Positions 10,971 through 62,119 are shown, numbered from the stretch's first letter. The stretch: 64,000 bases of DNA from an uncultured archaeon (GCA_964346665.1 CAYFVC010000067.1:987-64986); one strand, 5' to 3'. Notes: generated by a model not told the origin, from the sequence alone. A program made the numbers and translations.

Positions 10971-11027
10971 TGCAAAGGGCAATCAGCATGGAAGACCACT
11001 TTTTAAATTTTAAATCAATTTTTCACT

Positions 11028-12320
11028 ATGAATCCCGAAAAACACGATTTGTTCATGGCAACCGTTGGCTCTGATTTCGAGCTAGGTGACTTCGCCAAAA
11101 AAACTGAGGGGAAGAAGGCGTACAGAATATGGCATATTAAAGAGGGAGGAGGGAGCATAGACTCGGCTCCTGTTATGTACGAGGGCAAACTTTTCGTAGC
11201 CTCCCTCGACAATTACCTTTACGCGATAAACCCTGAGACGGGGAAGTTGATCTGGAAGTTCAGAGCGGATTCCCCTTTCATTGATAATTATCCTGCATAC
11301 TGGAAAGGAAGGCTTTACATTGGAAACTACGACCAAAACTTTTACTGTATAGATGCAAAGACCGGAAAAGAAATTTGGAGATTCCGGACGGGAGACAATA
11401 TATTCGGATCATGCGCTTTGGTTGTGGGCGGCAATGTTATATTCACTTCCAAAGACTTCTACGTATACTGTCTGGATTGCAAGACGGGTAAAATGATATG
11501 GGCATTCAGAACAGGCGGGTGGAGCGCTTCGACGCCCACACTCGCTGAAAACAAGGTTTTTGTCGGTTCTTCAGATGGAAACTTTTACTGCCTTGACCCA
11601 GAAACCGGAAAAGAAATCTGGCGCTTTAAAACTTCAGGAAACATATTTTCCCAGAACAGGTTCGCTGTGAATGATGGAATTATATACTTCGGCTCGGACG
11701 ATTCGAATGTCTACGGAGTGGGTATTTCTGACGGTAAAGAGAAGTTCAGGTTCAGGACTGGAGGATTCGTAAATGTAGTCCCCAGGGTTCATAACAACGT
11801 TGTTTACATTCATGCCAACGACAGACACCTATACGCAGTTGACATTAAAACGCGAAAAGAAATCTGGAGATTCAAGACAGGACACGATGAGGGCGGAACC
11901 GAAGCAATGATGCATGATAATAAACTGTATTTCGGTTCTTCTGACGATAACCTTTACTGTTTGGATCCGAATACTGGAAAAGAAATCTGGCGCTTTAAAA
12001 CAAGCGGGCCCGTATGGACACCACCACTTATAAAGAACGATCGAATTTATTTCGGTTCCTTTGATTGCCACCTGTATTGCATCACAACGGAAGGTAAGCT
12101 CCTTTGGAGGTTCCAAACCTCAACACTAAACCAGACCAAATACGAATACGAGGAGGAAACGATTTTCGAGTTCAAGCCTCCTAAAGTCGAGGAAACAAAA
12201 GACGAGGAAAAGGATATTTATGAGGTGAAAACAGAGGTGATGCACGGCGACACATATAAAGCTAAAAGCGAATATCAAATGGAAATACACTATCAATCAA
12301 AAGGTGGGGAGTATAAATGA
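11028..12320 (+). CDS. PQQ-repeat beta-propeller protein, paralog 1 of 4
   Basis: It has about 8 repeats of the form LY(A/C)(I/L)D..TGKE(I/L)W(R/K)F(K/R)T. There is no signal peptide. The N-terminal head (FMATVGSDFELGDFAKKT) and the acidic Tyr-rich tail are conserved among the paralogs. Confidence 0.75.
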   Translation: MNPEKHDLFMATVGSDFELGDFAKKTEGKKAYRIWHIKEGGGSIDSAPVMYEGKLFVASLDNYLYAINPETGKLIWKFRADSPFIDNYPAYWKGRLYIGNYDQNFYCIDAKTGKEIWRFRTGDNIFGSCALVVGGNVIFTSKDFYVYCLDCKTGKMIWAFRTGGWSASTPTLAENKVFVGSSDGNFYCLDPETGKEIWRFKTSGNIFSQNRFAVNDGIIYFGSDDSNVYGVGISDGKEKFRFRTGGFVNVVPRVHNNVVYIHANDRHLYAVDIKTRKEIWRFKTGHDEGGTEAMMHDNKLYFGSSDDNLYCLDPNTGKEIWRFKTSGPVWTPPLIKNDRIYFGSFDCHLYCITTEGKLLWRFQTSTLNQTKYEYEEETIFEFKPPKVEETKDEEKDIYEVKTEVMHGDTYKAKSEYQMEIHYQSKGGEYK

Positions 12321-13579
12321 GCGTTCAGTTCGAGAAGGATTTTGACATAGAGATGACCGATCTGACCAAGAAGAAAAAAGGCAAGAGGTTCAGCATCCTG
12401 TGGACACACCTGCCCGGTGGCGGAAGTATCGCTTCAATCCCACTGGTCCACAACGATGTGATATACTTCGGATGTGATGATTTCTACGTTTACGCGGTTT
12501 CGCTCGAAGGTAAAGAGATATGGAAATTCAAAACGAACGGCTGCATCCCAAATGCAACTCCTCTTATAAAAGATAATATTCTCTACATAGGCTCTTATGA
12601 CGGATACTTACACGCTATAAACATAAAAACAGGAAAACTCGTTTGGAAGTTCAAAACGGGTGATAAGATATGCTTTTCTGCATCTATTCATAAAAACGTC
12701 ATCTACTTCGGTTCAAGGGACGGTTATGTTTATGCTGTTGACACGAAAGGAGAAGAATTATGGAGGTTCAAGACAGGGGATTTTGTGAGATCCGTTCCAA
12801 CCGTTCACAACAACAAGATTTTCGTTGGCTCTTACGATTGCAATCTTTACGCGTTGGACTTCAACGGTAAGGAGATTTGGAGGTTCAAAACAGGAGGAGT
12901 TATAATAAATATCGAACCGTTTTGCATAGAAAAGAACAAAATTTACTTTGGCTCTTATGACAACAACCTTTATGCAGTGGACACGGAAACGGGAAAAGAA
13001 CTATGGAGGTTCAAGGCGAGCTGGGGCGTGAACGGCGTCCCTACCCTGCATAAGGGAAGATTGTATTTCGGCTCCGAGGATGGGAATTTTTATTCGATTG
13101 ATCTGAAAGGGAATGAGGTATGGCGTTTCAAGGCGGGAGGAGGGATAGGGACCAGTCACACAGCAATTCATAAGAACACGGCTTATTTCGGTTCTGAAGA
13201 TGGGAATCTTTATGCCTTAGACATGAATACAGGGAAGGAGAAATGGAGGTTCAAAACGTTCGGACCAACATGGGCCGGCTCTATTTTATACAAAGGGATA
13301 ATATATCTCGGTTCCTGGGATTGCCACATGTACGCTATAGATCCAGAAAAGGGCAAGGAAATGTGGAGGTTCGTCACCTCCACACTGAACCAGTCCGATG
13401 AAATTCTGGAAGAGGAAACCCCTATCGAATTCGCGGAAAGGAAGGAAGAGAAAGAAGTAATAGAGGAAGACAAATACACCGTAAAGAGAACAGTCGAGAT
13501 TTCAGGGGATGTTTACACCACAAGAAGCGAATACGCTTTCAAATCAGAATACGATAAGAAGGAGAAACATTACGAATAA
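12317..13579 (+). CDS. PQQ-repeat beta-propeller protein, paralog 2 of 4
   Basis: It has the same repeat architecture as paralog 1. Its ATG overlaps the stop of the upstream paralog (ATGA), suggesting translational coupling. Confidence 0.75.
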   Translation: MSVQFEKDFDIEMTDLTKKKKGKRFSILWTHLPGGGSIASIPLVHNDVIYFGCDDFYVYAVSLEGKEIWKFKTNGCIPNATPLIKDNILYIGSYDGYLHAINIKTGKLVWKFKTGDKICFSASIHKNVIYFGSRDGYVYAVDTKGEELWRFKTGDFVRSVPTVHNNKIFVGSYDCNLYALDFNGKEIWRFKTGGVIINIEPFCIEKNKIYFGSYDNNLYAVDTETGKELWRFKASWGVNGVPTLHKGRLYFGSEDGNFYSIDLKGNEVWRFKAGGGIGTSHTAIHKNTAYFGSEDGNLYALDMNTGKEKWRFKTFGPTWAGSILYKGIIYLGSWDCHMYAIDPEKGKEMWRFVTSTLNQSDEILEEETPIEFAERKEEKEVIEEDKYTVKRTVEISGDVYTTRSEYAFKSEYDKKEKHYE

Positions 13580-13612
13580 CGAACTTATTAATTTTTCAGA
13601 CAAATTTTCACT

Positions 13613-14899
13613 ATGAAATACGAAAAAGAAAGCTTTTTCACCGCAACCGTAGGAAGCGAGATGGGATTCGAGCTTGGAGATTTCGTGAAGAAGACGAAGA
13701 CAGGGAAAGCCTTCCGTATATGGCACATAAAGGAAGGCGGGGGTTGTGTTGAATGCACTCCGGTTATCATAGACAACATCCTGTATTTCACTTCCCACGA
13801 CCACAATCTCTACGCTTACGAGTTGCCTTCAAGAAAACTACTATGGAAGTTCAGAACGGGTGCCCTGCTCAGTCAGACTACACCTGTATTTTGGAATGAT
13901 TACGTATACATTTGTTGTTATGATAATAATCTATACTGCATACATGCTAGAACAGGCAAGGAGTTATGGAGATTCCGAACCGGAGATCGATTGTATTCAA
14001 CCGCATCGGTTGGAGAAGGCATTGTTTACTTCTCCTCAAAAGACCAGTACGTATACGCAATAAACGCAGAGACTGGTAAAGAACTCTGGAAGTTCAGAAC
14101 TGGCGGCTGGACAGGCTCAAAACCAACCTTGCACGAAGGAAGAGTCTTTGTTGGCTCTTTCGACGGAAATTTGTACTGCCTAGATGTCAAAACAGGAAAA
14201 GAATTGTGGAGGTTCAGAACAGAAGGCAATATATACAATTCTGATGATTTCGCCGTAAAAGATGGAATAGTGTATTTCGGAAGCGATGACCAGAACCTTT
14301 ACGCCGTTAGCACGGATAGTGGCAAGGAGATCTGGAGATTCAGAACAGGAGGGATTGTAAACAGCGCAGCCACTATAAGTGACAACGTCATATACTTCGG
14401 TTCGCAGGACAGGAACCTCTACGCCTTGGACATGAACGGCAAGGAGTTATGGAGATTCCAGACAGGAGACAAAGTGGCATCAAAGCCTATTGTTTATAAG
14501 GGAGTCATATATTTCGGTTCAACAGACTACAACCTTTACGCTGTCACAAAAGAAGGGAAACTTTTCTGGAAATTCAGAACCGAGAATGAGATCTGGAGTA
14601 CACCTAACCTGAAGGAAGGAATAGTTTATTTCGGTTCATACGATTGCCATCTTTATGCAGTAGACGCAAAAATAGGAAAAGAACTTTTCAGATTTAAGAC
14701 CAGCAGTTCAAAGGTTAGCGAATATGAAATCGAGCAGGAAACAATATTCGAATTCAAACCACCAGAAGTCAAAGAAGAAAAGGAAGAAAAGGAAGATAGG
14801 TATGAAGTGAAAACTCAGGCCACACACGAGAGCACGTACGACACGAAAAGCGAATACGTTTTCAAGAGTGAGTACAAACAAGAGTCGGAATACAAATAA
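13613..14899 (+). CDS. PQQ-repeat beta-propeller protein, paralog 3 of 4
   Basis: It is highly similar to paralog 1 and has the same upstream sequence (ttttcactATG). It ends in an SEYKQESEYK tail. Confidence 0.75.
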   Translation: MKYEKESFFTATVGSEMGFELGDFVKKTKTGKAFRIWHIKEGGGCVECTPVIIDNILYFTSHDHNLYAYELPSRKLLWKFRTGALLSQTTPVFWNDYVYICCYDNNLYCIHARTGKELWRFRTGDRLYSTASVGEGIVYFSSKDQYVYAINAETGKELWKFRTGGWTGSKPTLHEGRVFVGSFDGNLYCLDVKTGKELWRFRTEGNIYNSDDFAVKDGIVYFGSDDQNLYAVSTDSGKEIWRFRTGGIVNSAATISDNVIYFGSQDRNLYALDMNGKELWRFQTGDKVASKPIVYKGVIYFGSTDYNLYAVTKEGKLFWKFRTENEIWSTPNLKEGIVYFGSYDCHLYAVDAKIGKELFRFKTSSSKVSEYEIEQETIFEFKPPEVKEEKEEKEDRYEVKTQATHESTYDTKSEYVFKSEYKQESEYK

Positions 14900-14931
14900 A
14901 GAGATTTTAAATTTTAACACAAGTGTTGATT

Positions 14932-16218
14932 ATGAACTTCGAAAGAAAAGACCTTTTCATGACAACCCTTGATCCCAAAATGGGATTTGAACTGGGAGAT
15001 TTCGTGAAGAAAAAACATGGAGGGAAGGTTTTCAAATCATTTTATTACAGGGGCGAGGGCGGAAATATAGACGCAAGTATCAGGGAATTCAACAATAAGA
15101 TCCTGGTGGCGTCTCTTGACAGAAGGCTCTATAAACTAGATCCAAAAACAGGCAAGAAGATATGGGAATTCAAAGCAGGAGGGTATTTTGGAACAGGTGG
15201 ACCGGAAGTTCATAATTCAAGGGTTTATATAGGTAACTACGATCACAATTTCTACTGCATAGATTTCAATACGGGAAAGGAAATCTGGCGCTTCAAGACA
15301 GGGGATGTGATTTCCTCTTCTCCGTTGCTTGTAAAGGACATGGTCATCTTCCCTTCGCATGATTACTTCGTTTATGCCCTTGATATCAAAACGAGCAAGA
15401 TGTTATGGGCTTTCCGAACAGGCGGTTGGACAAATTTCAGCCCTGTTTCTGATGGGGAGAACATATTCATCGCATCCTCAGATGGGAACCTCTATTGTTT
15501 GGATTTCGAGGGAAGGGAGAAATGGAGGTTCACCACAGGAGGGAACATGTTCACCAAGGAGCAGGCCCCAATAGTGGATGGGGTGATATACTTCGGCTCG
15601 GATGACTGTTTTATTTACGGATTGGATATCAAGACAGGGAGAGAGGTCTGGAGATTCAAGACGGGTGGGATGGTAAATAGGCCTCCTGTTATATCGGATG
15701 GAAAAATGTACATACTTTCGCATGACGGATATTTTTACTGCATAGACATGGAAACGCGAAAAGAGCTCTGGAGGTTCAAGACATCTTCAGATGAAGGTGG
15801 AACTAAAGCCCTCATATTAAAAGACAGGATAATATTCTGTTCAGCTGATTACAACGTTTACTGCCTTGACAAGAATGGAAAACTTCTGTGGAAATTCCGA
15901 ACAGGCGGACACATATGGAGCACGCCTTTGTTCTACAAAGGAAAGCTGTATGTGGGTTCATACGATTGTCGCCTTTACTGCATGGATATCGAAGGCAACG
16001 TGGAATGGAGATTCGAAACCTCGAACCTGAATCAAGCACTCTGCATAATCGAAAATGGAACTACAATGGAATTCAAGCCCCCGGAAATCACAGGGGAAAA
16101 AGAGGAGAGAGAAGAAAAATACGAAACCAAAACACAGACGGGAGGCGAAGACGCCTACAAGGTTCAAAGCGAGTACGTGTTCAAATCAGAATACAAGCAG
16201 GAATCCGAGTATAAGTAA
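14932..16218 (+). CDS. PQQ-repeat beta-propeller protein, paralog 4 of 4
   Basis: It has the same architecture. The start is probably MNFERKDLFMTT (the tool ORF begins 9 nt earlier). It ends in SEYKQESEYK. Confidence 0.7.
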   Translation: MNFERKDLFMTTLDPKMGFELGDFVKKKHGGKVFKSFYYRGEGGNIDASIREFNNKILVASLDRRLYKLDPKTGKKIWEFKAGGYFGTGGPEVHNSRVYIGNYDHNFYCIDFNTGKEIWRFKTGDVISSSPLLVKDMVIFPSHDYFVYALDIKTSKMLWAFRTGGWTNFSPVSDGENIFIASSDGNLYCLDFEGREKWRFTTGGNMFTKEQAPIVDGVIYFGSDDCFIYGLDIKTGREVWRFKTGGMVNRPPVISDGKMYILSHDGYFYCIDMETRKELWRFKTSSDEGGTKALILKDRIIFCSADYNVYCLDKNGKLLWKFRTGGHIWSTPLFYKGKLYVGSYDCRLYCMDIEGNVEWRFETSNLNQALCIIENGTTMEFKPPEITGEKEEREEKYETKTQTGGEDAYKVQSEYVFKSEYKQESEYK

Positions 16219-16241: not shown

Positions 16242-17429
16242 TTATTTTTTGAAAACGATTTTGATGGTATCCCCGTCTTTCAATTCGTGATCCTTGCTGA
16301 TCTTCTGCTTGGTCTTTGCATCTATCCCACACACCATGTTTTCGGCGATATCGGAGTGAACCTTTTCCGCGAGATTTTTGGCGGTGCTTCCTTTCTTGAG
16401 TAAAATCGCATCGGGGAGAACTTGGTTTTTTTTATTTGAGAAGTGTGTTTCACTTTCCACAGGGTAGACCACTATGTAATTCAAGAGTTCGAAAACCGCT
16501 TTGTTAAGGGATTGCTGAATACCTGTTAGCCCGAATTTTTCCAGGACATTTTCCTTTATGAAATTCAGGGCTTCTATTTGCTTTTCATTCATTTTGCTTT
16601 CATCTTTTATTTTGAATTCGCCATCACCCGGGGTGTATTCTATTATCCCTCCCTTCGCAGCCCTCCTAAGGGCAAGCTCGCTTTCAGCAGAACATGGTAC
16701 GCACTCAATTCTGGATTTCTTGACCTTCTCATAGATTTCTTTCGAAACAGGAACATCTATCTTGTTCGCTGCGATCAGGATTGGTTTGTTACTTTCCCTC
16801 AAAACTTCAACAAACTCCAAAAGCTTTCCCTCATCAGCGTTCACATTCAGTTTCGTCTTTTCAATCGCTCCCTTCACGAATTCCTCTGTTATACCCAAAC
16901 CTGTTAACTGTTTTGTGATCAGGGCGTCCAAACCTATTTTCGCGGTCTCGATTTTTTTCCTTATCTGGTCCCAGTTCTTTGTCAGAATCCCCAGTATCCA
17001 GAAGTCGATCTCCTTGACAAAGAATTTTATGTCCTCTAGAGGATCTTGACTTCCAGGGGAAACAGGATTCCCGTCTTTGTCTGTCCCTCCTGAAATATCA
17101 ACCACGTGTATCAAAGCGTTTGCCTCCATTATGTCAGAGAGGAATTGGTTTCCCAGACCCCTCCCCTTGTGGGCATCAGGGACAAGACCAGCCACGTCTA
17201 TTATTTTTACCGGGATCAGCCTTGTCCCATCCTCGCATTTCGAATTCTGTGGATCGCATTTAACATTCAATTTCTTGCAAGGGCATTCATTTGTGACATA
17301 TCCTACCCCCACATTCGGTTTTATCGTGGTAAAAATACGATTAGAAATCTCCACGTCAACCAGGGTCGCTGCATTGAAAAATGTCGACTTCCCGGTGTTG
17401 CTCTTCCCTGTCAATGCTATCAGCATCAA
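16242..17429 (-). CDS. OBG/YchF-like GTPase with C-terminal TGS domain (archaeal Ygr210-type)
   Basis: It has a P-loop (GKSNTGKST), G3 (DVAG) and G4-like motifs, a Cys-rich insertion, and a C-terminal beta-grasp TGS-like domain (DGDTIKIVFKK). Confidence 0.75.
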   Translation of the reverse strand: MMLIALTGKSNTGKSTFFNAATLVDVEISNRIFTTIKPNVGVGYVTNECPCKKLNVKCDPQNSKCEDGTRLIPVKIIDVAGLVPDAHKGRGLGNQFLSDIMEANALIHVVDISGGTDKDGNPVSPGSQDPLEDIKFFVKEIDFWILGILTKNWDQIRKKIETAKIGLDALITKQLTGLGITEEFVKGAIEKTKLNVNADEGKLLEFVEVLRESNKPILIAANKIDVPVSKEIYEKVKKSRIECVPCSAESELALRRAAKGGIIEYTPGDGEFKIKDESKMNEKQIEALNFIKENVLEKFGLTGIQQSLNKAVFELLNYIVVYPVESETHFSNKKNQVLPDAILLKKGSTAKNLAEKVHSDIAENMVCGIDAKTKQKISKDHELKDGDTIKIVFKK

Positions 17430-18940
17430 CTCACCTTCCCTTCAATCTTCTTGAAAAGAATCTTCGCTTTTCCTATCTTATGGTTTTCAAGCGGTTTCTT
17501 GAGATCCTCCCATTTAAGATCCTTTGAATTCAGTTGTTTCTCTAGCTTTTTCGAAAATTCCGGCAGGATGGGTTTCAGAAGTATTGCGAGGTCCTTCACT
17601 ATGTTGGCTGAAAATGCAAGAACCCCACTGCATTTTTCCTGTTCCTTCTTGATCAGTACCCAGGGCTGGTTTTCCTGGAAATACCGGTTTCCGATATCCC
17701 CTATCTCAAGTACCCCTTTGATAGCGTCACGGAAGTTGTAATCAAGATAGCATTTACGAATGTTTTCAATCTTCTTTTCGATTTCTTTCGAAAGTTTCTT
17801 CTCCCATTCACCCTTCGCTACCCCTCCAACCCTCGATTCTGAATACCTGTTTATGAAGCTGAGCGTTCGATAGCAGAAGTTTGAGATGTTCGCGACGAGC
17901 TCGTTGTTCACCCTCTCAACGAGATCCTTTGTTGAGAAGTCCCCGTCCTCTCCCATAGGAATTTCCTTGGCGAAGAAATACCTAACATGATCTGCTTCAT
18001 ACCTTTTAACGATCTCAGCAGGATCTATATGAGTCCCAAGAGATTTGCTTATCTTCTGACCGTTTACAGTAAGGTAACCATGAACAAGTATTGTCCTTGG
18101 AGGCTTTATCCCAGCTGAGATGAGCATTGCAGGCCAGATCACTGAATGGAACCAGTTTATCCCCTTCCCAATAACATGCGCATCCGCCGGCCAGAATTCC
18201 TTGAACTTCTTGCCATCAGGATAATCCAAGGCAGACACGTAGTTTATTAACGCATCAAACCAGACATAGATTTTGTGTTTCTTGTCAACAGGGATATCTA
18301 TTCCCCAGTTGAGGCCCTTCCTGCTAACACACAAGTCTTTCAACTCATCGGATTTTATTCTTGAAAGCATTTCGTTTCTCCTCTTCTTCGGAATTACGAA
18401 GGTCGGAGATTCCAGAAGCTTGATTATCTGATCCTTGTATTTACTAAGCCTGAAAAAGTAAGCCTCCTCTTTGAGAGACTTGGGAGGTTTTTGGTGTTCA
18501 GGACATTTCCCATCAACCAAATCCTTTTCGGTTAGATAACTTTCACAACCCTCACAGTACAGGCCTTGATAAAATCCCTTATATATGTCCCCCTTATCCA
18601 AAACCTTCTTGAATATATTCTGAGAAATCTTTATGTGGCTTTCCTCTGTGGTTCTTATGAAATGGTCATTCGATATACTAAGAATCCCAGTAAGTTCCTT
18701 GAAATACTTCACGTTTCTATCCACAAATTTTTTAGTTGGGATACCTGCCTCTTTCGCTGCCTGAGAATTCTTTTGAGCATTTTCATCAGTTCCTGTTAAG
18801 AAAAAAACCTTCTCACCCCTCAACCTCCGAAACCTAGCTATAATATCGGCTATCACTTTCTCATAAGCATGCCCTATATGTGGCTTTGCATTCACGTAGT
18901 CTATCGCTGTCGTAACGTAGAACTTCATTTTCACCACCAT
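17426..18940 (-). CDS. metG: Methionyl-tRNA synthetase
   Basis: It has the HIGH motif (PHIGHAYE), KMSKS as KISKS, and a zinc knuckle (CEGCESY...CPEH). It is a class I aaRS with MetRS-specific signatures. Confidence 0.9.
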   Translation of the reverse strand: MVVKMKFYVTTAIDYVNAKPHIGHAYEKVIADIIARFRRLRGEKVFFLTGTDENAQKNSQAAKEAGIPTKKFVDRNVKYFKELTGILSISNDHFIRTTEESHIKISQNIFKKVLDKGDIYKGFYQGLYCEGCESYLTEKDLVDGKCPEHQKPPKSLKEEAYFFRLSKYKDQIIKLLESPTFVIPKKRRNEMLSRIKSDELKDLCVSRKGLNWGIDIPVDKKHKIYVWFDALINYVSALDYPDGKKFKEFWPADAHVIGKGINWFHSVIWPAMLISAGIKPPRTILVHGYLTVNGQKISKSLGTHIDPAEIVKRYEADHVRYFFAKEIPMGEDGDFSTKDLVERVNNELVANISNFCYRTLSFINRYSESRVGGVAKGEWEKKLSKEIEKKIENIRKCYLDYNFRDAIKGVLEIGDIGNRYFQENQPWVLIKKEQEKCSGVLAFSANIVKDLAILLKPILPEFSKKLEKQLNSKDLKWEDLKKPLENHKIGKAKILFKKIEGKVS

Positions 18941-22835: not shown

Positions 22836-22947
22836 GCCTCGGTAGCTCAGTGGTAATTTCGTAGGAAGCAGATTACATCTGCTTCGATCGCTAGGGAGCG
22901 TTCGCTTGGTAAGCGAAAGGTCGCGAGTTCAATCCTCGCCCGAGGCT
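22836..22947 (+). tRNA. tRNA-Thr(GGU) with a ~37-nt intron in the D-loop (non-canonical position)
   Basis: The acceptor stem is 7 bp (gcctcgg/ccgaggc). The D-stem is gctc/gagc. The anticodon arm ttcgc-ttGGTaa-gcgaa is uninterrupted. The T-arm is gcgag-ttcaatc-ctcgc and the discriminator is t. About 37 extra nt lie between the D-stem halves and contain a perfect 9-bp hairpin (gaagcagat-tac-atctgcttc). Confidence 0.7.
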
Positions 22948-34383: not shown

Positions 34384-35745
34384 TCAGACCAGAATTACCT
34401 CTTGCTGGACCTTGCAGTTTTCCGGGTCCTCATAATAATTGATCCTGTATACCACCTTCTCCCCTAACGTGTCTGGGTCAACCTCTATCGAATACGCTCC
34501 TCCATCGATCGGTTCTCCATAACCGCACAGAAATTCCGAAACAGAATAAGTCTTGCTTCCTTCCCCGTATACGTATATCACGTTTTCACACCCTCCAGGA
34601 CCTGTTGTTTTCAAATGATCAATCCCGAACCTTTCGAGGTTCTCATAAACTACCCTTATTTCACCTCCTTCACATACGTTCGATCTGTCTCTGAGAAGGT
34701 AACTTCCCAAGTAAAACCTGAGTTCTGATCTTTCAGGAGAATTCCCTGGATTCACGTAATTCCCCATCCCTTCCAATTTTTTCCAGCAGTTCTTGAAATC
34801 CCTCTTTTCAAGGCAGTCTATAAGCCTGACCTTGTTCATCACTAGGAAATTCGGATTCAAAATATGGTCGAAATTTTCTTGTATTTTTTCGCAGCTCCCG
34901 TCCACGTCATTCTCTAGGTTTTCGAATATTTCACCCCAGAGATACCCTTCCCCAAGCTGGTAGATGATTTCGCTTATGAAATGCCCTGTTAGCAGACCTT
35001 GGAAGAGGAAATGATCGAGCAGTATTGAAAGGAAAGGATCCCCGTTTTCAGCATACAAAGAAGCGAGAATACTTGAGGTTTTGAGAAGGTTCAGGGATTT
35101 GCTAGCGATAGTTCCGCTAGGTATTAACGTCCCCCCAAGGTTTTCGAACTCTTTCTCGTATTCATTTATCTTTCCAAACCAAATACCTGTTCCAAGATAA
35201 GAGCAAATCCCCGAGTTGTAAATCGATTCCTTATCAAAATCCTTCACGGTTAAAAAGTCATTATTGAGTTTCGTTTTCTGTTTTTCAAGGCTGAGCAGAC
35301 TGGTTTCGATTACCGGTATTATCTTCAAAGTCCCCTCGTACCTCTCTTCCCCCAGGGATTCGTTTGAGAACTTTGTGTAGAAATAGAAAGTCATTTCGCA
35401 ATCACTCGGTTTTTCGAGTGTTATGATCGGTTCCAGATCGAAGTAACACAGGTAAAGGTTTTCCGTCCTGTTACATTCGTTAGCATACGTTTCCACTCGC
35501 TTCCCCCCACACATAAGGTCGAGGTCCGCTTCAAGGTTTTCGATATCACTCCTTATAGTAACCGATAACTGATTATCTAACAAATGGCAATCGAAATCAG
35601 AATTCAGTATCTGACAATATATCTCGTTTTCTGAAACCTCGATGACCTTGAATTCCTCCGAGTTCGCAATAACGCTGAACAAAAGGAAGAACGCGATCAC
35701 CAACACCACTCCGTAATATTTTTTCATCCTAACCACACGGTACAC
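34384..35745 (-). CDS. Secreted hypothetical protein (signal peptide, Cys-rich)
   Basis: It has an N-terminal hydrophobic signal (YYGVVLVIAFFLLFSVIANS), is 453 aa long and carries many Cys. Confidence 0.4.
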   Translation of the reverse strand: MYRVVRMKKYYGVVLVIAFFLLFSVIANSEEFKVIEVSENEIYCQILNSDFDCHLLDNQLSVTIRSDIENLEADLDLMCGGKRVETYANECNRTENLYLCYFDLEPIITLEKPSDCEMTFYFYTKFSNESLGEERYEGTLKIIPVIETSLLSLEKQKTKLNNDFLTVKDFDKESIYNSGICSYLGTGIWFGKINEYEKEFENLGGTLIPSGTIASKSLNLLKTSSILASLYAENGDPFLSILLDHFLFQGLLTGHFISEIIYQLGEGYLWGEIFENLENDVDGSCEKIQENFDHILNPNFLVMNKVRLIDCLEKRDFKNCWKKLEGMGNYVNPGNSPERSELRFYLGSYLLRDRSNVCEGGEIRVVYENLERFGIDHLKTTGPGGCENVIYVYGEGSKTYSVSEFLCGYGEPIDGGAYSIEVDPDTLGEKVVYRINYYEDPENCKVQQEVILV

Positions 35746-37531
35746 TCACACTCTGCTCCCCCTCGCTCACAACCTCAATACCACATTCGCCTAATGCGAT
35801 TTCAATTTTGTATATCTCGCTGGGTTTTATAGATTCCGAAATCCCCTCGACAAATGGGAGGTAAATATAAATTTCATTTTCATCCCCGGTCGAAAGATAT
35901 ACAGTTTCAACATAACCAACGGTTTCACTCGTTTGATTGTTCACTATCGCTCCAAACACATCATAAACCCCTGGTTTGAGGATCATTTTAGTTTCTCCTA
36001 TGAAACCTTCCGAACCTATATTGTAAAGCATTATGTTGTCCCCGTCTTCCGGTTTAATGTAAACGAGAACGAAGTAGTCTTCGGAGAAAAGGTTTATCGA
36101 CCTGGGTTGGCCGGAAACCGAATAATCTTTATAAGTTCCCCCTGCTTTCGGATCTCCGGGTTTCACAGGAACTCCGTAAAAATGAACTGGTATCTCCTTC
36201 CCTCCACCCTCTAGGACAACGGAATAACCCTCAAGATTGCTAGCTTTCAAAAGTTTTCTATGCTCCCTGTACCCTTCCTTATGAATCGAAATCTCCCCTA
36301 TCATGCATGGTATTCCTGAATTCAACAATCCTAGGTAATCAGTCTCCCCTAGCGAGCAACCCCCGAACGTGACCAGCGCTTTGCTTACAGGAAGACCTTT
36401 CGAATCCCTTACGTTCACGCTTGCTAGGCACCCGCTTTCCATCACGCATTTTTCATGATAAGATGTTTTCTCCCCTTTCCTGAAACCACATCCAGGCTCA
36501 TTCTCATCAATGTTCACCATTATCGCGAAATTGAACAACTGATCAAACACATCGTCCTCGATCATCACAATTATAGGATATCGAAACGAATAACGAACAT
36601 CCATAGTTTCGATACAGGTGGAGGAGAACGAAATGACGGGTTTCGGGTAGAATACAACAGGATTAGGCTCAATATCGAAGTTGTTTCCTAAGTTCCAGTC
36701 TTCTGGGTAAACAAATGATACTTGAAGGTCTGAATCCGCGACCCCTAGCAAATAAAACGGATTCTCGGGAAGATCTAAAACATCCCTGTTGAAAACAGTG
36801 TGACTAGCTGTATACTTCACAAGGTTTTCGAGAGAATTCCGAACTTCGCTTTCGGTTTTGAATAACGTATTCCTACAACCTGTTCTCAGATCTATTGTTG
36901 GAAGCCATTCCTCCTCGGGGTTTGAATAAAGTATGGTGTTTAGCGTGGCGGACTCGAGAAATTTAGAATTATTATTCCTGTTTGTTATATCTTCCGAGAC
37001 CTCGATTATTTCCTTAAGCTTCGAAGGTATAAGGATGCTGTATGGTTGGGGGATGCTAGAATTCTCCACGAATGTCGGCATATTCACATCGATCTTTACC
37101 CCGTTATCCTGTATGCTAACGAAAACGTCGAGGTTTCCCAGATCGATAGAAACACCCTTCCCGAAAAATTCCATCTCTGGCTTGAAAACCACTTTAATTC
37201 TTTCCTCCAAATCCTTTTCAAGAATTTTCTCTATTTTTGGTATTTCTGTCCTGTCACAATCCCCCCATATCCCTATTTCCTTCACCCCGTATCTCACCGT
37301 GTTTTCCGAGTTTGAAATTCCCCCTGTTCTGTATATTTCCCTCAGTTCTTTCTTTCCGGAGTCCCTTATCGAGTTGAGGATGGAGTCCTTTATCAGTTTC
37401 TTTTCCTCTCCTAACCCTGTCACAATAGGTCGATCCTCCTCTGCAACGAACCCCCCGAAGGAAACGAGGATAACGACAACCGCGATCACTATGAAGGCAA
37501 AAACAGCTATAAACTCAACCTGACCTTTCAT
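35729..37531 (-). CDS. Large class III signal peptide (type IV pilin-like) protein
   Basis: The N-terminus MKGQVEFIAVFAFIVIAVVVILV matches the archaeal prepilin KG|Q cleavage context followed by a hydrophobic helix. The protein is 600 aa long. Confidence 0.5.
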   Translation of the reverse strand: MKGQVEFIAVFAFIVIAVVVILVSFGGFVAEEDRPIVTGLGEEKKLIKDSILNSIRDSGKKELREIYRTGGISNSENTVRYGVKEIGIWGDCDRTEIPKIEKILEKDLEERIKVVFKPEMEFFGKGVSIDLGNLDVFVSIQDNGVKIDVNMPTFVENSSIPQPYSILIPSKLKEIIEVSEDITNRNNNSKFLESATLNTILYSNPEEEWLPTIDLRTGCRNTLFKTESEVRNSLENLVKYTASHTVFNRDVLDLPENPFYLLGVADSDLQVSFVYPEDWNLGNNFDIEPNPVVFYPKPVISFSSTCIETMDVRYSFRYPIIVMIEDDVFDQLFNFAIMVNIDENEPGCGFRKGEKTSYHEKCVMESGCLASVNVRDSKGLPVSKALVTFGGCSLGETDYLGLLNSGIPCMIGEISIHKEGYREHRKLLKASNLEGYSVVLEGGGKEIPVHFYGVPVKPGDPKAGGTYKDYSVSGQPRSINLFSEDYFVLVYIKPEDGDNIMLYNIGSEGFIGETKMILKPGVYDVFGAIVNNQTSETVGYVETVYLSTGDENEIYIYLPFVEGISESIKPSEIYKIEIALGECGIEVVSEGEQSVSVPCG

Positions 37532-37562: not shown

Positions 37563-40400
37563 ATGAAGTTGAAATTCCTGTTGCTCATTCTTGCAGTTCT
37601 GATTGTTTTGCCGTTTTTTGTTTTTGGCCAAGGCGAACAAGCAATAACTGATGAATTGGGTATAATGGGTGTTCACAAGACTGAGGCAGAAAATATCATA
37701 AAAAGTCTAGAGGACGCAGAAGAAATAAAGATAAGGGTTTACATAAGCAAAGATAACTTTGATGATGAACAATCATTTAGGAACTTTTCTCGGTCAAAAT
37801 ATCGGGATTACGAATTGGATTTAAAAGGAACTCCACTTTATAACATTCTTATTTTTTACGCCCATGTTTACGAGGGTAATCTAAAAAAACCGTACCTGGG
37901 TTACGTATATTCTGAGAGATGTGGAGCTATGAATGATATGGTAAAGGAACTTAGAGTGGGTTATTTAAGTCAAGAGCAAGAGCTTTCAGGAGATGAACTT
38001 CTGGGAATAGTAAAAGAAGTTTCTGACGGTATAAAAAGGATAGTTTTCACTCATAGTTATGACTGCATAATCAACATTTGCGAATATGAAATTAGATATA
38101 ATGAAGCCGATTGTGAAGAGTTTGACCCCTCAAGGCCAGAAGATGTATACACATGTATAAGATGGAATAATGAAATAGGATGTTATTACGCTAAGGGGAT
38201 CGATGAGGAATTAAAATCCCAGGTTTCGCGAGAGGAAGACATGGAGATATTGGAGGACAAAACTGTTTACCTCATAGATGACAATAACTGGAAAGATATC
38301 CTAAGTCTCTATCCTTTGACAACATATCATTACGTAAGCAAGGATATCGTAAAAATCACGGAAATAGAGGAGATGAAAGCAAGAAAAAATAGCATCAGAT
38401 ACAGCCCAACCCTTTTATACCATAGGGAGGGGGATAATTTGGATCTGGATTCGACCCTCATATTCCTCAAGCAGTTCAGACCAAGCGAAGTTGTCATAGT
38501 CCATAACGACATTCCAAAGAAACTCAATCTCGCTCTGGAAAAATACGAATTAAAACACCTCTCCGTGGAAGATTACCATGAACTGTGGAATAAAAAAGGC
38601 TACGAATACATCGTTGTTTCGGAAAATGACTACAAGACAGGACTGCTGGCTTCTGTTTTTGCTTCCTATCTTAATGCCCCACTGGTGTTCGAAAATTCTA
38701 AAGAATTCGATGAATACGACTTCGAGGACAAAAAAGTTTACTATGTTCACCCTCATTCCAAGAACAGCGAAACCTATTCCTCCATATTAGAAAAAACATC
38801 AGCCGATAATATCACATCCTATGATATTCCTACGCTGCAGAAGATATACGTTGAATACACGAACACGGACAAAATAATACTTGTCAACCCAAACGATATA
38901 AAGGATGAATACTGCGAGCATTTTGAGTACAAAACAGAATTCGGAAAGATTAAAGACAATTACTGCAGGGATTCCCTGGTTTCCCCCCTACTTGCAACTT
39001 TAAAGAATGAGCTTATCGTTTTCACGGATGTTGAACCTCTGGAAAAGGGGGTTGAAATAGGAAGGGAATCGAAAAGGTTTGGAAATTGCACTTCATACGT
39101 AATGGACAGATACTCAAATCCCGAAAAGCAGGAGTTTGAGAACGAGATTGAAACCAAATCAGCAACAGTTAAACAGGATATTCAAGAGGCAATAGAAAAC
39201 ACATGCTGCCCTTATGTTGAGATCAATTACCTCACGATAATTTCAAGCCCAAAAATGATACCATTAAGCGGTTTTTGGAGCTGTTTTTATAATCTGGGTG
39301 AATTCAGATCAAGCCTTGATTTAAAATACTCTCCTGAAAGCGCAAACGGCTGGATTTTCGGAATATCCATTTCCGACACTTCAAGTTACATGAATAGGGA
39401 TGCGAGCTTTTATAAACACGGTTTATCCTATTTACCTAGTCAATCTGATGTGAGAATGTTTCAGAAAATAGGCCTGATAGCATACGATTTACCGGATGAA
39501 CAAAAGTACGTACCTGATCTGGCGAATCAGCTTGATGTTCAAGGCTACAATGTATCTTGTTTTGTTGGCAATGAATCAATCGCCATAAACAACTGTAAGG
39601 AGGGAAGGGCAAGAGGCTCGTTCCTCGGCGAAAACGATATAATACTTTATGATGATCACGGGCGCACGTATTCCTGGAAAGGTATAGATTCGGATGAAAT
39701 ACCTGAACTTCATTCTCCCATAGCGATAGCTGCCGCCTGTTTTACCATGGACTACTACAAATCAGAAAGAGATGAACTCTTCGGTTCCAACTTCATTAGG
39801 ATGGGAGGTCTGGGTTATTATGGAGGCGTCTCGTTTATGATTGCTAGTGATATGGGGAAAGAACTGATTTATAATATTTTTGAAGGATACGATCTAGGAA
39901 ACACCCTTAAGGCGGCCCGAAGAAAAATACAAGATGCTGGAGACAGGTATATACTTCTCGGAGACCCGACGATCAAACCAGCCTTAATCGGCGAAGTGAA
40001 AATCGCAGAAATGAAGGAAGAGGCCGAACGCAAAGGTTATAAGTGCATTGCAGTGGCCGGAAGGAAGAAATGTTACAGAACAGATTTTTTCAAAATTAAA
40101 TGTGGTGAGGACGATTTTGGCGACCCCGAGATTAAATGCATAGATTTGTCCAAAAAATATTCTATAAAGCGCGAGTTCGGTGGTGATTATTATGTTGTAT
40201 TTGGAAAAAACAGATTCCAAAAATCAGATGAAAGATCAATAACCTGCGGAGATTTCTACTACGAGGGACCCTTCTTGGCAACTCCGGACGGAGATGCATG
40301 GTTGGGTGAAGTTACTTGCAAGGTAGAAGAAAACATGTGCCTTGATGAACCGAAAATAGTGAATATAGGAGGAACGCTTAAAAAGAAACTGGTAACATGA
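37563..40400 (+). CDS. Large secreted protein with putative clan CD (gingipain/clostripain-like) cysteine peptidase His-Cys dyad
   Basis: It has a signal peptide. About 33 residues separate YDDHGRT from AIAAACF, which is the His-Gly...Ala-Cys spacing of C25/C11/C13 peptidases. The protein is Cys-rich. Confidence 0.4.
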   Translation: MKLKFLLLILAVLIVLPFFVFGQGEQAITDELGIMGVHKTEAENIIKSLEDAEEIKIRVYISKDNFDDEQSFRNFSRSKYRDYELDLKGTPLYNILIFYAHVYEGNLKKPYLGYVYSERCGAMNDMVKELRVGYLSQEQELSGDELLGIVKEVSDGIKRIVFTHSYDCIINICEYEIRYNEADCEEFDPSRPEDVYTCIRWNNEIGCYYAKGIDEELKSQVSREEDMEILEDKTVYLIDDNNWKDILSLYPLTTYHYVSKDIVKITEIEEMKARKNSIRYSPTLLYHREGDNLDLDSTLIFLKQFRPSEVVIVHNDIPKKLNLALEKYELKHLSVEDYHELWNKKGYEYIVVSENDYKTGLLASVFASYLNAPLVFENSKEFDEYDFEDKKVYYVHPHSKNSETYSSILEKTSADNITSYDIPTLQKIYVEYTNTDKIILVNPNDIKDEYCEHFEYKTEFGKIKDNYCRDSLVSPLLATLKNELIVFTDVEPLEKGVEIGRESKRFGNCTSYVMDRYSNPEKQEFENEIETKSATVKQDIQEAIENTCCPYVEINYLTIISSPKMIPLSGFWSCFYNLGEFRSSLDLKYSPESANGWIFGISISDTSSYMNRDASFYKHGLSYLPSQSDVRMFQKIGLIAYDLPDEQKYVPDLANQLDVQGYNVSCFVGNESIAINNCKEGRARGSFLGENDIILYDDHGRTYSWKGIDSDEIPELHSPIAIAAACFTMDYYKSERDELFGSNFIRMGGLGYYGGVSFMIASDMGKELIYNIFEGYDLGNTLKAARRKIQDAGDRYILLGDPTIKPALIGEVKIAEMKEEAERKGYKCIAVAGRKKCYRTDFFKIKCGEDDFGDPEIKCIDLSKKYSIKREFGGDYYVVFGKNRFQKSDERSITCGDFYYEGPFLATPDGDAWLGEVTCKVEENMCLDEPKIVNIGGTLKKKLVT

Positions 40401-41297: not shown

Positions 41298-42719
41298 ATG
41301 AAATGGCTTTTTCCTTTCGTGATCACGTTTCTGTTGCTTGTTCCTCTGGGAAGTTCACTGGAAGGCGGAACGATCCTCTCGGTTGAGCCCGGGACAGGGT
41401 ATAAGTGTGTGTACGTAAGCCTCCCCCAGGATCTCGGTATGAGCTATGTTGACAGAACTTTGGAAACGGTCATAGAGGTGGACAAAGGGGAAAGCCCATG
41501 GACGGACACGACGTACAGCAAGGTCGTTATGGAGCCTGGGGTTTTGAACAAGAACCCTGTTTGCTTCTACTATTCGGAAAAGGAAGAGGGGGATTTTTCT
41601 TTTTACAGTATAAGCCTGTCCTCGCGTGATATCGGAGTTTCGAGTTCGATTTCAGGAGGGTTGTGCGTTTCTGGTTACGAGGATGTTGATACAGGGGTGG
41701 ATATGGAGAACGAAACGGATATATGTAAACTTCTGAACGAGAACGCTGACATAATAGACCTCAGCTTCAAGGAGGAGGTTACGCAGGCGAAGCCAGGGGA
41801 AATCGTTACCAAAACGTTATACATAACCTCTTATGCGAACCTCAGGATACGGCTTTCCATCGCAACGAACCTTCAGAACGATTTCGGAGAGCCGGTTGTG
41901 ACGACTTCTCCTTCAAACCCGACCGCTATGAAAACGTTCAAGGTTAAGGCTCCCGAAAGGGAGGGGGAATTCGAGATGATAGTGAACGCGCAGGCCGAGG
42001 GTTGCGAAATACAGGCGTGCAAAAAACAAAAGAAGGGAACGATATCAGTCACAACAAAAGAAAAGGAAGGTTTCACGGCTTCGGTTATACCGGAAAACAT
42101 AAACCTGAAAGAGGCAGGGGAAACCATCTTTAGGGTGGTCATTTCGAATTACGATGAATCACAGGATTTCCTCATAGAGGCGAGTTCAAGTCCTTCGATG
42201 AATATAGAGCCTGAATCAAAAACCGTTAACTTAGGCGAAAACGAGGAGAAGACAACCGTTTTCAAGGCATTCCCAGGAGAGGAGGATTTGTACAAGATAG
42301 AATTCAAGATAACTTCCGAAAAATCCGAGAAGTTACTGACTTCTCATATCTCGATAGGCGAGCTTCTTACCGATGCGTTCAGGTATTCGGAAGCAAGCGA
42401 AAAGGTTTCGACCCCTGACATAAGGGAAGAGATAAGGAACGCTAGGATCGAATACGAAGAGAAGTACAAAACAACCTCGTACGGCGAGGATGTGAATGAG
42501 TATGAGAATTTCATAGACACGATTGACGAGCTGAAGAAGACTTCTGAGAGCGGAGGGAACGGGAAAGACGAAAAAGAGCCTAAAGAGGAGGGGTTCAACT
42601 GGCTGTTTCTTGTGATACCCGTTATTGTGATAGTAGTTATTATCCTTCTTTTTATTGCTTATAAGAGGTCGAAGGTTGCGAGTTCAGGATACCAAGGTTA
42701 CGAATATTCTAGGATTTAA
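41298..42719 (+). CDS. Surface protein with signal peptide and C-terminal TM anchor
   Basis: It has an N-terminal signal and a C-terminal TM (WLFLVIPVIVIVVIILLFIAY) plus a KRSK tail. The acidic ectodomain is 473 aa. Confidence 0.45.
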   Translation: MKWLFPFVITFLLLVPLGSSLEGGTILSVEPGTGYKCVYVSLPQDLGMSYVDRTLETVIEVDKGESPWTDTTYSKVVMEPGVLNKNPVCFYYSEKEEGDFSFYSISLSSRDIGVSSSISGGLCVSGYEDVDTGVDMENETDICKLLNENADIIDLSFKEEVTQAKPGEIVTKTLYITSYANLRIRLSIATNLQNDFGEPVVTTSPSNPTAMKTFKVKAPEREGEFEMIVNAQAEGCEIQACKKQKKGTISVTTKEKEGFTASVIPENINLKEAGETIFRVVISNYDESQDFLIEASSSPSMNIEPESKTVNLGENEEKTTVFKAFPGEEDLYKIEFKITSEKSEKLLTSHISIGELLTDAFRYSEASEKVSTPDIREEIRNARIEYEEKYKTTSYGEDVNEYENFIDTIDELKKTSESGGNGKDEKEPKEEGFNWLFLVIPVIVIVVIILLFIAYKRSKVASSGYQGYEYSRI

Positions 42720-61672: not shown

Positions 61673-62119
61673 ATGGACAGGAGAGTTTACATTCTGCCAA
61701 TAATGAGCGTTATTTTAATCGTAATTTTAGCCATGAGACCGGATATAACTGGGTTCATGGTTGCCAGACCTTCAGGACCACTCGAGAACCAAATTTTCGC
61801 AAACATCAGCATGAGCATAAACGAGGACGGGTTCATACCCGAGGATTCGCTCGTAACGGTTTACCTTGATGATCGAAGCTCTTCCATGGGTTTCAAGGAG
61901 TTCATCGACAAAACAGGAACTGGTTATAACCGAATGAAAGGCGAGATACCGGATATAGATTACGAAGGATACGGATTCGGAGGGACATACACCTATGCGA
62001 TAGACATCTCTGAATTCGATCTCAACACAATCCTAGAACCAGGAGAACACAACCTGATAGTTGAAGTGAGTTACGAGAACTACGTGATCTCTCACACCTC
62101 CCAGACCATCGAAGTTTAA
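61673..62119 (+). CDS. Signal-anchored hypothetical protein
   Basis: It has an N-terminal TM (YILPIMSVILIVILAM) and is 148 aa long. Confidence 0.35.
   Translation: MDRRVYILPIMSVILIVILAMRPDITGFMVARPSGPLENQIFANISMSINEDGFIPEDSLVTVYLDDRSSSMGFKEFIDKTGTGYNRMKGEIPDIDYEGYGFGGTYTYAIDISEFDLNTILEPGEHNLIVEVSYENYVISHTSQTIEV

Follow-up and report, generated by a model that had tools for sequence, protein, structure and literature searches.

Why does an uncultured archaeon carry four beta-propeller genes side by side, each with the same kind of head and tail? The question is raised by a run of four genes, here called g1 to g4 in 5' to 3' order, at positions 11,028–16,218 of a 64,000-nucleotide (nt) stretch of its DNA (GCA_964346665.1 CAYFVC010000067.1:987-64986), referred to below as the window. 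An original prediction made from this DNA had described the products as paralogous pyrroloquinoline quinone (PQQ)-type propellers with conserved ends, and had proposed that they form a heteromeric scaffold. Judged by their sequences, the proteins are soluble, leaderless, non-quinoprotein eight-bladed PQQ-like beta-propellers. As to function, we tentatively prefer the reading that they are non-enzymatic binding modules, in which each paralogue would have its own ligand and the invariant tail would dock on a shared partner or on other family members.

The four neighbouring open reading frames (ORFs) were found again at the coordinates first given for them, all on the plus strand (Table 1). Their products align end to end with pairwise protein identities of 45–53%, which bears out their description as paralogues. 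For g4, the ATG at 14932 is more likely to be the start than the GTG at 14923 picked by the ORF caller, because it gives the same protein as the NCBI-derived database entry P0009 and has a TATA-like box 14–29 nt upstream. Read from this ATG, g4 is identical to P0009, and g1–g3 have no exact match in a collection of 15 billion proteins.

A Pfam scan of the four proteins recognizes the propeller only, as PQQ_2 (PF13360; E 1e-48 to 1e-81), Beta-prop_ACSF4 (PF13570), and PQQ. The scores for PQQ_2 (164–272 bits, cut-off 27.6) and Beta-prop_ACSF4 (214–257 bits, cut-off 133) lie above the Pfam gathering score in all four. Repeat analysis of the sequences gives eight blades per protein with a period of 39–42 amino acids (aa) and a mean blade-to-blade identity of 36–44%. 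An AlphaFold2 model of g3, run with an alignment of 99 homologues, also has eight four-stranded blades (mean predicted local distance difference test score, pLDDT, 87; predicted template modelling score, pTM, 0.81), and pLDDT in the ring is above 90. Both counts agree with the estimate of about eight PQQ-type blades made earlier. The low-confidence residues of the model are 1–19, 392–423, and 426–428, of which the two stretches in the tail have a pLDDT below 50. In Foldseek searches of the PDB, designed eight-blade propellers are the best matches, because the natural blades are so regular, and are followed by YxaL, BamB, and tetrathionate hydrolase. Neither a signal peptide nor a transmembrane-like segment was found in g1–g4, the highest Kyte-Doolittle mean over 19 residues being 0.9–1.1, as expected from the claim that none of the four carries a signal peptide.

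Proteins of this fold may be enzymes, and the quartet could encode PQQ-dependent dehydrogenases or cofactor-less hydrolases of the tetrathionate hydrolase kind. The Pfam PQQ and PQQ_2 matches and a structural likeness to tetrathionate hydrolase (TM-score ~0.65) speak for such a role, as does an invariant cysteine in blade 8. This residue lies in a D-C-[H/R]-[L/M]-Y motif that replaces the D-G/N-N-L-Y of the other blades (C345-H346 in g3, window 14645–14650, with equivalents in g1, g2, and g4). The cysteine is 100% conserved across the 99 homologues, and the adjacent residue is usually His. It could be structural, since its blade is next to the closure of the ring, or it could be a functional or metal site. 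However, the four proteins score 98–129 bits against a cut-off of 480 for PQQ alcohol dehydrogenases (TIGR03075), and 37–73 bits against a cut-off of 833 for membrane-bound PQQ-dependent dehydrogenases of the glucose/quinate/shikimate family (TIGR03074); identity as a PQQ dehydrogenase was rejected on these scores, which fall far below both cut-offs. The propeller of about 330 aa is also without the long insertions that are known to build quinoprotein active sites, and the residues conserved family-wide are framework positions plus the one blade-8 Cys. In addition, a metabolic enzyme would not typically have so many copies or such variable putative binding segments. An enzymatic role is thus judged very unlikely.

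Variation among family members is concentrated in a few segments. Sequence entropy across the family peaks in strand A, its flanking loops, and the C–D turn, and what stays fixed is the framework, the blade-8 D-C-(H), and the tail tyrosines. By the general geometry of beta-propellers, strand A and its adjoining loops would line the central channel and the top face at its entrance.

The first ~45 and the last ~65 residues have no Pfam match even at E values up to 10, and an NCBIfam scan of the full-length proteins gave no match limited to the head or tail ends. In the g3 model, the head contains a short strand (residues 25–27, within GDFVKK) and a longer one (34–41, RIWHIKEG) directly before blade 1, which is followed by GGC. 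The RIWHIKEGGGS portion of the head has the W-x-F/GG pattern typical of a blade D strand. Because of this pattern and its modelled place directly before blade 1, strand 34–41 would be the closure ('velcro') strand that completes blade 8. The head strand and the proximal tail strands may in turn form a small clasp flanking the closure strand, a putative pairing suggested by their order in the sequence. The conserved modules called head and tail in the original prediction are therefore real, but their boundaries shift: part of the head appears to belong to the propeller, the proximal tail would provide the putative clasp strands, and the distinctive tyrosine array takes up only the last ~32 residues. 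Structure prediction, which had been recommended as a check, gave eight blades and a disordered tyrosine tail. A second AlphaFold2 model, of a homologue with another tail subtype (P0073), shows the head strand, one proximal tail strand, and disorder from residue 387 to the end.

The tyrosine array follows the acidic linker, is predicted to be disordered, and is made of S-[E/D]-Y-x-x-x hexads; the tail peptide of the window type is YDTKSEYVFKSEYKQESEYK. The spacing of its tyrosines is 12-6-6-6 in g3 and g4, 12-6-6-7 in g1, and 13-6-6-7 in g2. All four proteins terminate in Tyr-X-COOH (EYK, HYE, EYK, and EYK for g1 to g4). The five tail tyrosines are 96–99% conserved in the 99-sequence alignment, equal to the structural Trp of the blades, a level of conservation that, within this alignment, is not a matter of chance. 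The last 16 aa of g3 and g4 are identical (SEYVFKSEYKQESEYK), and their codons differ at many synonymous sites (14699–14896 and 16018–16215). Identical peptides in different codons point to selection on the peptide. Gene conversion as the source of the identical ends was ruled out by the same synonymous differences.

In the original prediction, the Tyr-rich repeats had been candidate sites of phosphorylation or metal binding. One way to account for so regular a tail is that it serves chiefly as a substrate for modification (phosphorylation of Tyr or Ser, sulfation, or cross-linking of S-E-Y) that switches the function of the protein. The invariant tyrosines are flanked by Ser and acidic residues in a segment predicted to be disordered and accessible, and the regular hexad spacing would suit a processive enzyme. 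Against this, the surroundings of the arrays show no conserved gene for a kinase, sulfotransferase, radical-SAM, or other modifying enzyme, and the kinase-propeller fusions among the matches sit in bacterial contexts. As the principal role of the tail, modification is unlikely, if somewhat less so than the other alternatives discussed below; it may plausibly coexist with docking. A PqqA-like Glu-x-x-x-Tyr cross-link motif was looked for in the tail and ruled out, the residue four before each Tyr being Ser, Thr, or Lys.

Head and tail together mark a family. Hidden Markov models of the head and of the tail, made from the four window proteins, were searched against the 120 best database homologues. 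Both are strongly kept in 13 of the 120 (12 besides P0009), and the tail is weakly kept in about 80. The bacterial BamB-like proteins and kinase fusions among the 120 keep neither. A tail profile built from 30 sequences and searched against 1.84 billion representative proteins (E <= 1e-3) gave 107 matches. Nineteen of these were inspected. Two or three seem to come from chimeric or misassembled ORFs; the others are family members, either complete or as fragments preceded by propeller blades. There was no match to the tail among PDB sequences. The suggestion that head and tail, searched separately, might define a family thus held, and the tail profile retrieves family members almost alone. The signature of the family consists of a head strand [ED]-L-x-D-F-x-x-K-K, a closure strand, GG[S/N/C], eight blades, the blade-8 D-C-[H/R], and a C-terminal array of five tyrosines. 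None of these elements is missing from g1–g4, and they recur in the 99 aligned homologues.

The end of the tail defines subtypes. The window type (subtype 1) ends in ...SEYK, subtype 2 has ...KQKSDYD plus an extension of ~30 aa, and subtype 3 reads ...YKSRITYQVSTQY..KGKYQVDSDEEEF; ...DSDEEEF is among the endings of other subtypes. Members without a C-terminal extension mostly end in Tyr-X-COOH, also when they are one hexad shorter. In arrays of the ~455-aa subtype (L015 9923–15253; L026 4455–17648; L050 535–13937; L022 7254–19313), successive genes overlap by ~52 nt. The ~30-aa extension after ...KQKSDYD (e.g. WVMFEDVMEGEELCLLDSKV...) is there an other-frame reading of the start region of the next gene, in which the ribosome-binding site GGAGG is read as 'EGE' and the N-terminus MDFGFEGFE as 'W(T/I)SD(L/S)K..L'. 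Because of this overlap, the conservation of the extension may be a by-product of dual coding.

How widely is the family distributed? A genome scan with one genome per species found 540 relatives. The locus-level data come from the best 80 of these 540 matches, in 77 loci, and copy numbers per genome are lower bounds from metagenome-assembled genomes (MAGs). The named homologues of the window proteins are from Candidatus Aenigmatarchaeota. Nearly all taxon-named loci among the 77 are Aenigmatarchaeota MAGs, and many others are labelled 'uncultured archaeon'; the exceptions are one contig labelled Micrarchaeota and one Methanomicrobiales match, which is a different, much larger protein. The family is thus seen almost only in Candidatus Aenigmatarchaeota, a phylum of the DPANN archaea. 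The window genome itself most likely belongs to this phylum (kingdom Nanobdellati/DPANN), because of the named homologues and of synteny with at least 10 MAGs. Downstream of a family gene, the syntenic Aenigmatarchaeota MAGs have convergent genes for an Obg-like GTPase (YGR210 type) and methionyl-tRNA synthetase (MetRS).

The 77 loci contain 165 family genes, standing singly or in same-strand runs of up to 10. At least one array runs on past the 10-kb flank, so arrays of 10 or more genes exist, and one genome has at least 19 family copies among the best 80 of the 540 matches. None of the 165 genes encodes a transmembrane-like or signal-like segment or a lipobox. No relative was found in IMG/VR among viral or mobile-element sequences, and none of the four window proteins matches a PADLOC-DB family at E <= 0.001 that would indicate a link to defence.

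The paralogues within the quartet are old. Codon-aligned DNA identity among g1–g4 is 52–60%, without high-identity blocks. The nearest relative of g1 is 73% identical and is found in an Aenigmatarchaeota MAG (CAVSBQ; locus L004), that of g2 is 77% identical (L014), those of g3 are 63% identical (L002 and L003), and the nearest orthologues of g4 besides P0009 are 65–70% identical (L003, L014, and P0005). The best partner inside the window for any paralogue is at most 52% identical, as against 63–77% elsewhere. The four orthologue groups seen in the best-match identities also come out in a neighbour-joining tree. Since closer orthologues are found in other genomes, the duplications are older than the divergence of these organisms. 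It had been considered that the array might be an assembly artefact or a very recent duplication, for which the tandem layout, and nothing more, can be cited. The low DNA identity of the copies and the closer orthologue of each in other assemblies rule this out, and the chance that it nevertheless applies is negligible.

The same data bear on the proposal of a heteromeric scaffold, in which g1–g4 would form one fixed hetero-oligomer with tails binding neighbouring propellers. Several observations are in its favour: the four genes lie next to one another on a single strand, g1 and g2 appear to be translationally coupled, four distinct orthologue lineages are kept across genomes, and the ~52-nt overlaps with an internal ribosome-binding site in related arrays are compatible with equimolar co-expression. 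However, most related genomes have a single family gene at the syntenic site beside the GTPase and MetRS. The order of the genes also varies; for example, L003 has g1-g3-g4 with g2 apart, and L014 has a reverse-strand gene within the cluster. Moreover, array size runs from 1 gene to 10 or more, with at least 19 copies in one genome, and g3 and g4 appear to have putative promoters of their own. Variation in copy number and order makes a fixed four-subunit complex less likely. The scaffold proposal is weakened by this variability and by that of array size, and a dedicated complex of the four must be regarded as improbable.

The expression signals were assigned on the basis of archaeal promoter geometry. 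TATA-like A/T boxes precede g1, g3, and g4, 13–29 nt before their ATGs, and none was found before g2. These boxes are putative promoters, and their spacing would fit leaderless transcripts. The ATGA overlap between g1 and g2 that had been reported is present, and so is the upstream motif said to be shared by g1 and g3, TTTTCACTATG standing before both. The overlap and the Shine-Dalgarno-like site within the end of g1 suggest that g1 and g2 are translationally coupled on one leaderless transcript. The quartet probably comprises three transcription units: g1–g2, g3, and g4. The tail of g1 ends in ...SKGGEYK, not ...KQESEYK, probably because the same DNA encodes the putative ribosome-binding site of g2; the ...SKGGEYK ending is also found in the g1-type homologues P0011, P0012, and P0015.

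Based on these features, the function that we tentatively favour can be laid out as follows. The propeller top face and channel, with their variable strand-A and adjoining-loop segments, would recognize a different ligand in each paralogue. The invariant tyrosine tail would be a multivalent array of short linear motifs, through which every member could dock either on a shared partner or machine or on its fellow family members. The quartet would then be one local cluster of an expanding family and not a dedicated four-subunit complex. This reading has a probability short of even, and several points count against it. The idea of a shared partner draws only on the pattern of conservation. The comparison of gene neighbourhoods in the 77 loci brought out no functional partner gene. 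The AlphaFold2 models are of monomers and as such cannot show docking. Variability of loops and strand A is common in many propellers and is therefore a weak sign of ligand diversity. Finally, the invariant blade-8 Cys, often accompanied by His, could mark a catalytic or metal site.

In a more specific and rather improbable version, the disordered, invariant tyrosine-hexad tail and the acidic, conserved N-terminus would jointly be a targeting or docking signal that delivers a large and diversified set of propeller 'receptors' to one cellular machine. Such a signal would suit the way DPANN archaea live. Candidate machines would be one for export or cell-to-cell transfer at the contact between DPANN archaea and their hosts, one for vesicle or coat assembly, and the proteasome or an AAA unfoldase reached through Tyr-X-COOH. 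Closely related is the alternative that the family is an exported or host-directed repertoire, destined for the surface, vesicles, or the host, with the termini as a non-classical targeting signal. Lineage-specific tandem expansion, variable putative binding segments, invariant termini, and a small DPANN genome resemble what is seen in effector families, and extracellular vesicles of haloarchaea are enriched in leaderless PQQ-type propellers (PMC10927574), a loose precedent for the targeting-signal reading. However, signal peptides, transmembrane segments, and lipoboxes are absent from the whole set of family genes, no secretion-system gene is conserved nearby, and viral or mobile-element copies were not found. 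The tail profile, in addition, matched nothing outside this family, and the haloarchaeal proteins enter the comparison by description. An exported repertoire is likewise rather improbable.

The family is likely important to the biology of the phylum, given its long tandem arrays, its share of the genes of a small genome, and a strictly conserved motif without match elsewhere. At least 19 genes take up ~26 kb of a genome of ~1 Mb; the group includes one assembly with a 1.1 Mb contig. DPANN archaea are host-dependent organisms with tiny genomes, and little is established about how they interact with these hosts. The tail is a precise sequence signature for finding family members, and the tyrosine hexads could be used in peptide pull-downs, for antibodies, and in metaproteomic searches. 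If the targeting-signal reading were true, Aenigmatarchaeota would have in this family their first recognizable repertoire of effectors or adaptors, and a novel kind of signal would define it. If the function is that of a generic scaffold, it is still a well-defined lineage-specific family and a taxonomic and evolutionary marker.

The fold is ordinary. In the searchable literature, there appears to be no description of the head strand and tyrosine-hexad tail, of the family's near-confinement to Aenigmatarchaeota, or of how far it has been amplified in tandem. Literature searches on PQQ, propeller, or BamB proteins in Aenigmarchaeota or DPANN archaea did not bring up the family, and a search by tail peptides found nothing. 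The PQQ propellers named in DPANN papers are secreted giant proteins or six-bladed quinoproteins. Public annotation calls the members 'PQQ-binding-like beta-propeller repeat protein' or 'BamB', of which the latter is misleading for archaeal proteins.

The remaining features of the window are of a different kind. The neighbours of the quartet are GAPDH, two GT2 glycosyltransferases, a HAD hydrolase, an NTP-transferase, a GalT-like protein, the Obg-like GTPase, MetRS, and a RecJ/GAN-like protein. Recurrent neighbours in the 77 loci are housekeeping genes (Obg-like GTPase, MetRS, ribosomal proteins, FEN1, KaiC-like, aRF1, threonyl-tRNA synthetase, MscS, and a K+/H+ antiporter) or truncated family members at locus edges. 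Synteny with the GTPase and MetRS probably does not reflect functional linkage, because both are convergent and housekeeping. Beside one propeller array (L036 11360–14095), a 911-aa aRF1-like ORF has an apparent intein-like insert, recognized by eye from a Cys at its upstream junction and His-Asn-Ser at its downstream one. Elsewhere in the window, an Rfam tRNA match of 112 nt is 45 nt longer than the tRNA-Thr(GGU) given by ARAGORN, which suggests an intron or a 5' extension. Three ORFs with weak matches to adhesin-type domains are candidate surface proteins of the symbiont, and five long ORFs (413–945 aa) have no Pfam match at E <= 1e-5.

Table 1. Features of the g1–g4 quartet and of the rest of the window, with positions counted from the first nucleotide of the window.
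Feature	Position	Strand	Length	Description
g1	11028..12320	+	430 aa	head, eight-bladed PQQ-like propeller, Tyr tail
g2	12317..13579	+	420 aa	paralogue; head most divergent of the four
g3	13613..14899	+	428 aa	paralogue used for the AlphaFold2 model
g4	14932..16218	+	428 aa	from ATG; 431 aa from GTG at 14923
Head, g1	11028..11171	+
Head, g2	12317..12460	+
Head, g3	13613..13756	+		residues 1–48
Head, g4	14932..15075	+
Proximal tail, g1	12117..12218	+
Proximal tail, g2	13376..13474	+
Proximal tail, g3	14699..14800	+		strands 370–376 and 379–381 (YEIEQETIFEFKPP), then acidic linker
Proximal tail, g4	16018..16119	+
Tyr array, g1	12219..12317	+		Y398, Y410, Y416, Y422, Y429; divergent end SKGGEYK
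Tyr array, g2	13475..13576	+		Y387, Y400, Y406, Y412, Y419
Tyr array, g3	14801..14896	+		Y397, Y409, Y415, Y421, Y427 in YEVKTQATHESTYDTKSEYVFKSEYKQESEYK; predicted disordered; ends Tyr-Lys-COOH
Tyr array, g4	16120..16215	+		Y397, Y409, Y415, Y421, Y427; last 16 aa as in g3
TATA-like box, g1	10999..11015	+		A/T-rich CTTTTTAAATTTTAAAT, 13–29 nt upstream of ATG
TATA-like box, g3	13584..13596	+		CTTATTAATTTTT
TATA-like box, g4	14903..14918	+		GATTTTAAATTTTAAC, upstream of ATG 14932
Shine-Dalgarno-like site, g2	12303..12311	+		GGTGGGGAG within end of g1, 5 nt upstream of g2 ATG
Obg-like GTPase and MetRS	16242..18940	-		YGR210-like G4 and TGS domains in the GTPase; convergent to g4
tRNA (Rfam match)	22836..22947		112 nt
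tRNA-Thr(GGU) (ARAGORN)	22881..22947
Long ORF	34384..35745	-		no Pfam match
Long ORF	35729..37531	-		no Pfam match
Long ORF	37563..40400	+		no Pfam match
Long ORF	41298..42719	+		no Pfam match
Cadherin/Rib-like ORF	47674..51858	-	1394 aa	weak domain match
He_PIG Ig-like ORF	54999..57473	-	824 aa	weak domain match
Right-handed beta-helix/NosD ORF	59730..61601	-	623 aa	weak domain match
Long ORF	62116..63357	-		no Pfam match

BamB and YxaL are among the closest known systems; they belong to the same two Pfam families, PQQ_2 and Beta-prop_ACSF4, and share the eight four-stranded blades and the Trp-docking repeat (Foldseek E 1e-19 to 1e-21). Like them, the members of the family are probably non-catalytic protein-binding scaffolds. 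In contrast, BamB, a lipoprotein, is found in the periplasm of diderm bacteria, and YxaL is a secreted protein, whereas the present family is archaeal and leaderless. It adds the head strand and the Tyr-hexad tail, both unmatched in Pfam, the tail being unmatched also in the PDB and, outside the family, among the 1.84 billion representatives. Identity with BamB is excluded because the scores are below cut-off (135–163 bits against 285 for TIGR03300; 87–123 against 423 for PRK11138), the N-termini are not hydrophobic and carry no lipoprotein signal, and the host belongs to the archaea, to judge from the longer Rfam tRNA match, the Aenigmatarchaeota orthologues, and the synteny. AfsK/PknB-type kinases with a PQQ propeller were rejected as well, the four proteins having no kinase domain and scoring 133–172 bits against 1300 for NF053615. 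The kinase-propeller fusions among the homologues sit beside PBP, FtsW, PP2C, and FHA genes in bacteria and are thus uninformative for the archaeal family.

The designed propellers Cake8, Scone, and Tako8 (PDB 6tjg, 7awz, and 6g6n) are the best structural matches, with up to 35–39% sequence identity. They are artificial, without head, tail, or biological role, and the likeness shows only that the natural blades are near-consensus. The haloarchaeal HVO_1020 and Hlac_2402 are PQQ beta-propeller repeat proteins enriched in extracellular vesicles, with a proposed coat-like role (PMC10927574). They resemble the family, by description only, as archaeal PQQ-type propellers, and differ in that the tail profile had no match beyond the family of Aenigmatarchaeota type.

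The tail recalls two docking systems. HbYX, a hydrophobic residue followed by Tyr and any residue, is the C-terminal proteasome-docking motif of archaeal PAN and Cdc48. A penultimate Tyr with a free C-terminus is shared by all four window proteins and by most family members without an extension, but the residue before the Tyr is Glu, His, or Gln and not hydrophobic, and other subtypes end otherwise, in ...DSDEEEF or in the ~30-aa extension. Cdc20 and Cdh1 consist of a WD40 propeller with a C-box and a C-terminal IR tail, short disordered terminal motifs that dock on a common machine. Although they are of the WD40 class, use another motif, and share no homology with the family, so that the comparison concerns only how the proteins would work, they are a functional analogy for the role favoured here: a ligand-binding propeller flanked by short docking motifs, with paralogues that share the motif and differ in the binding face.

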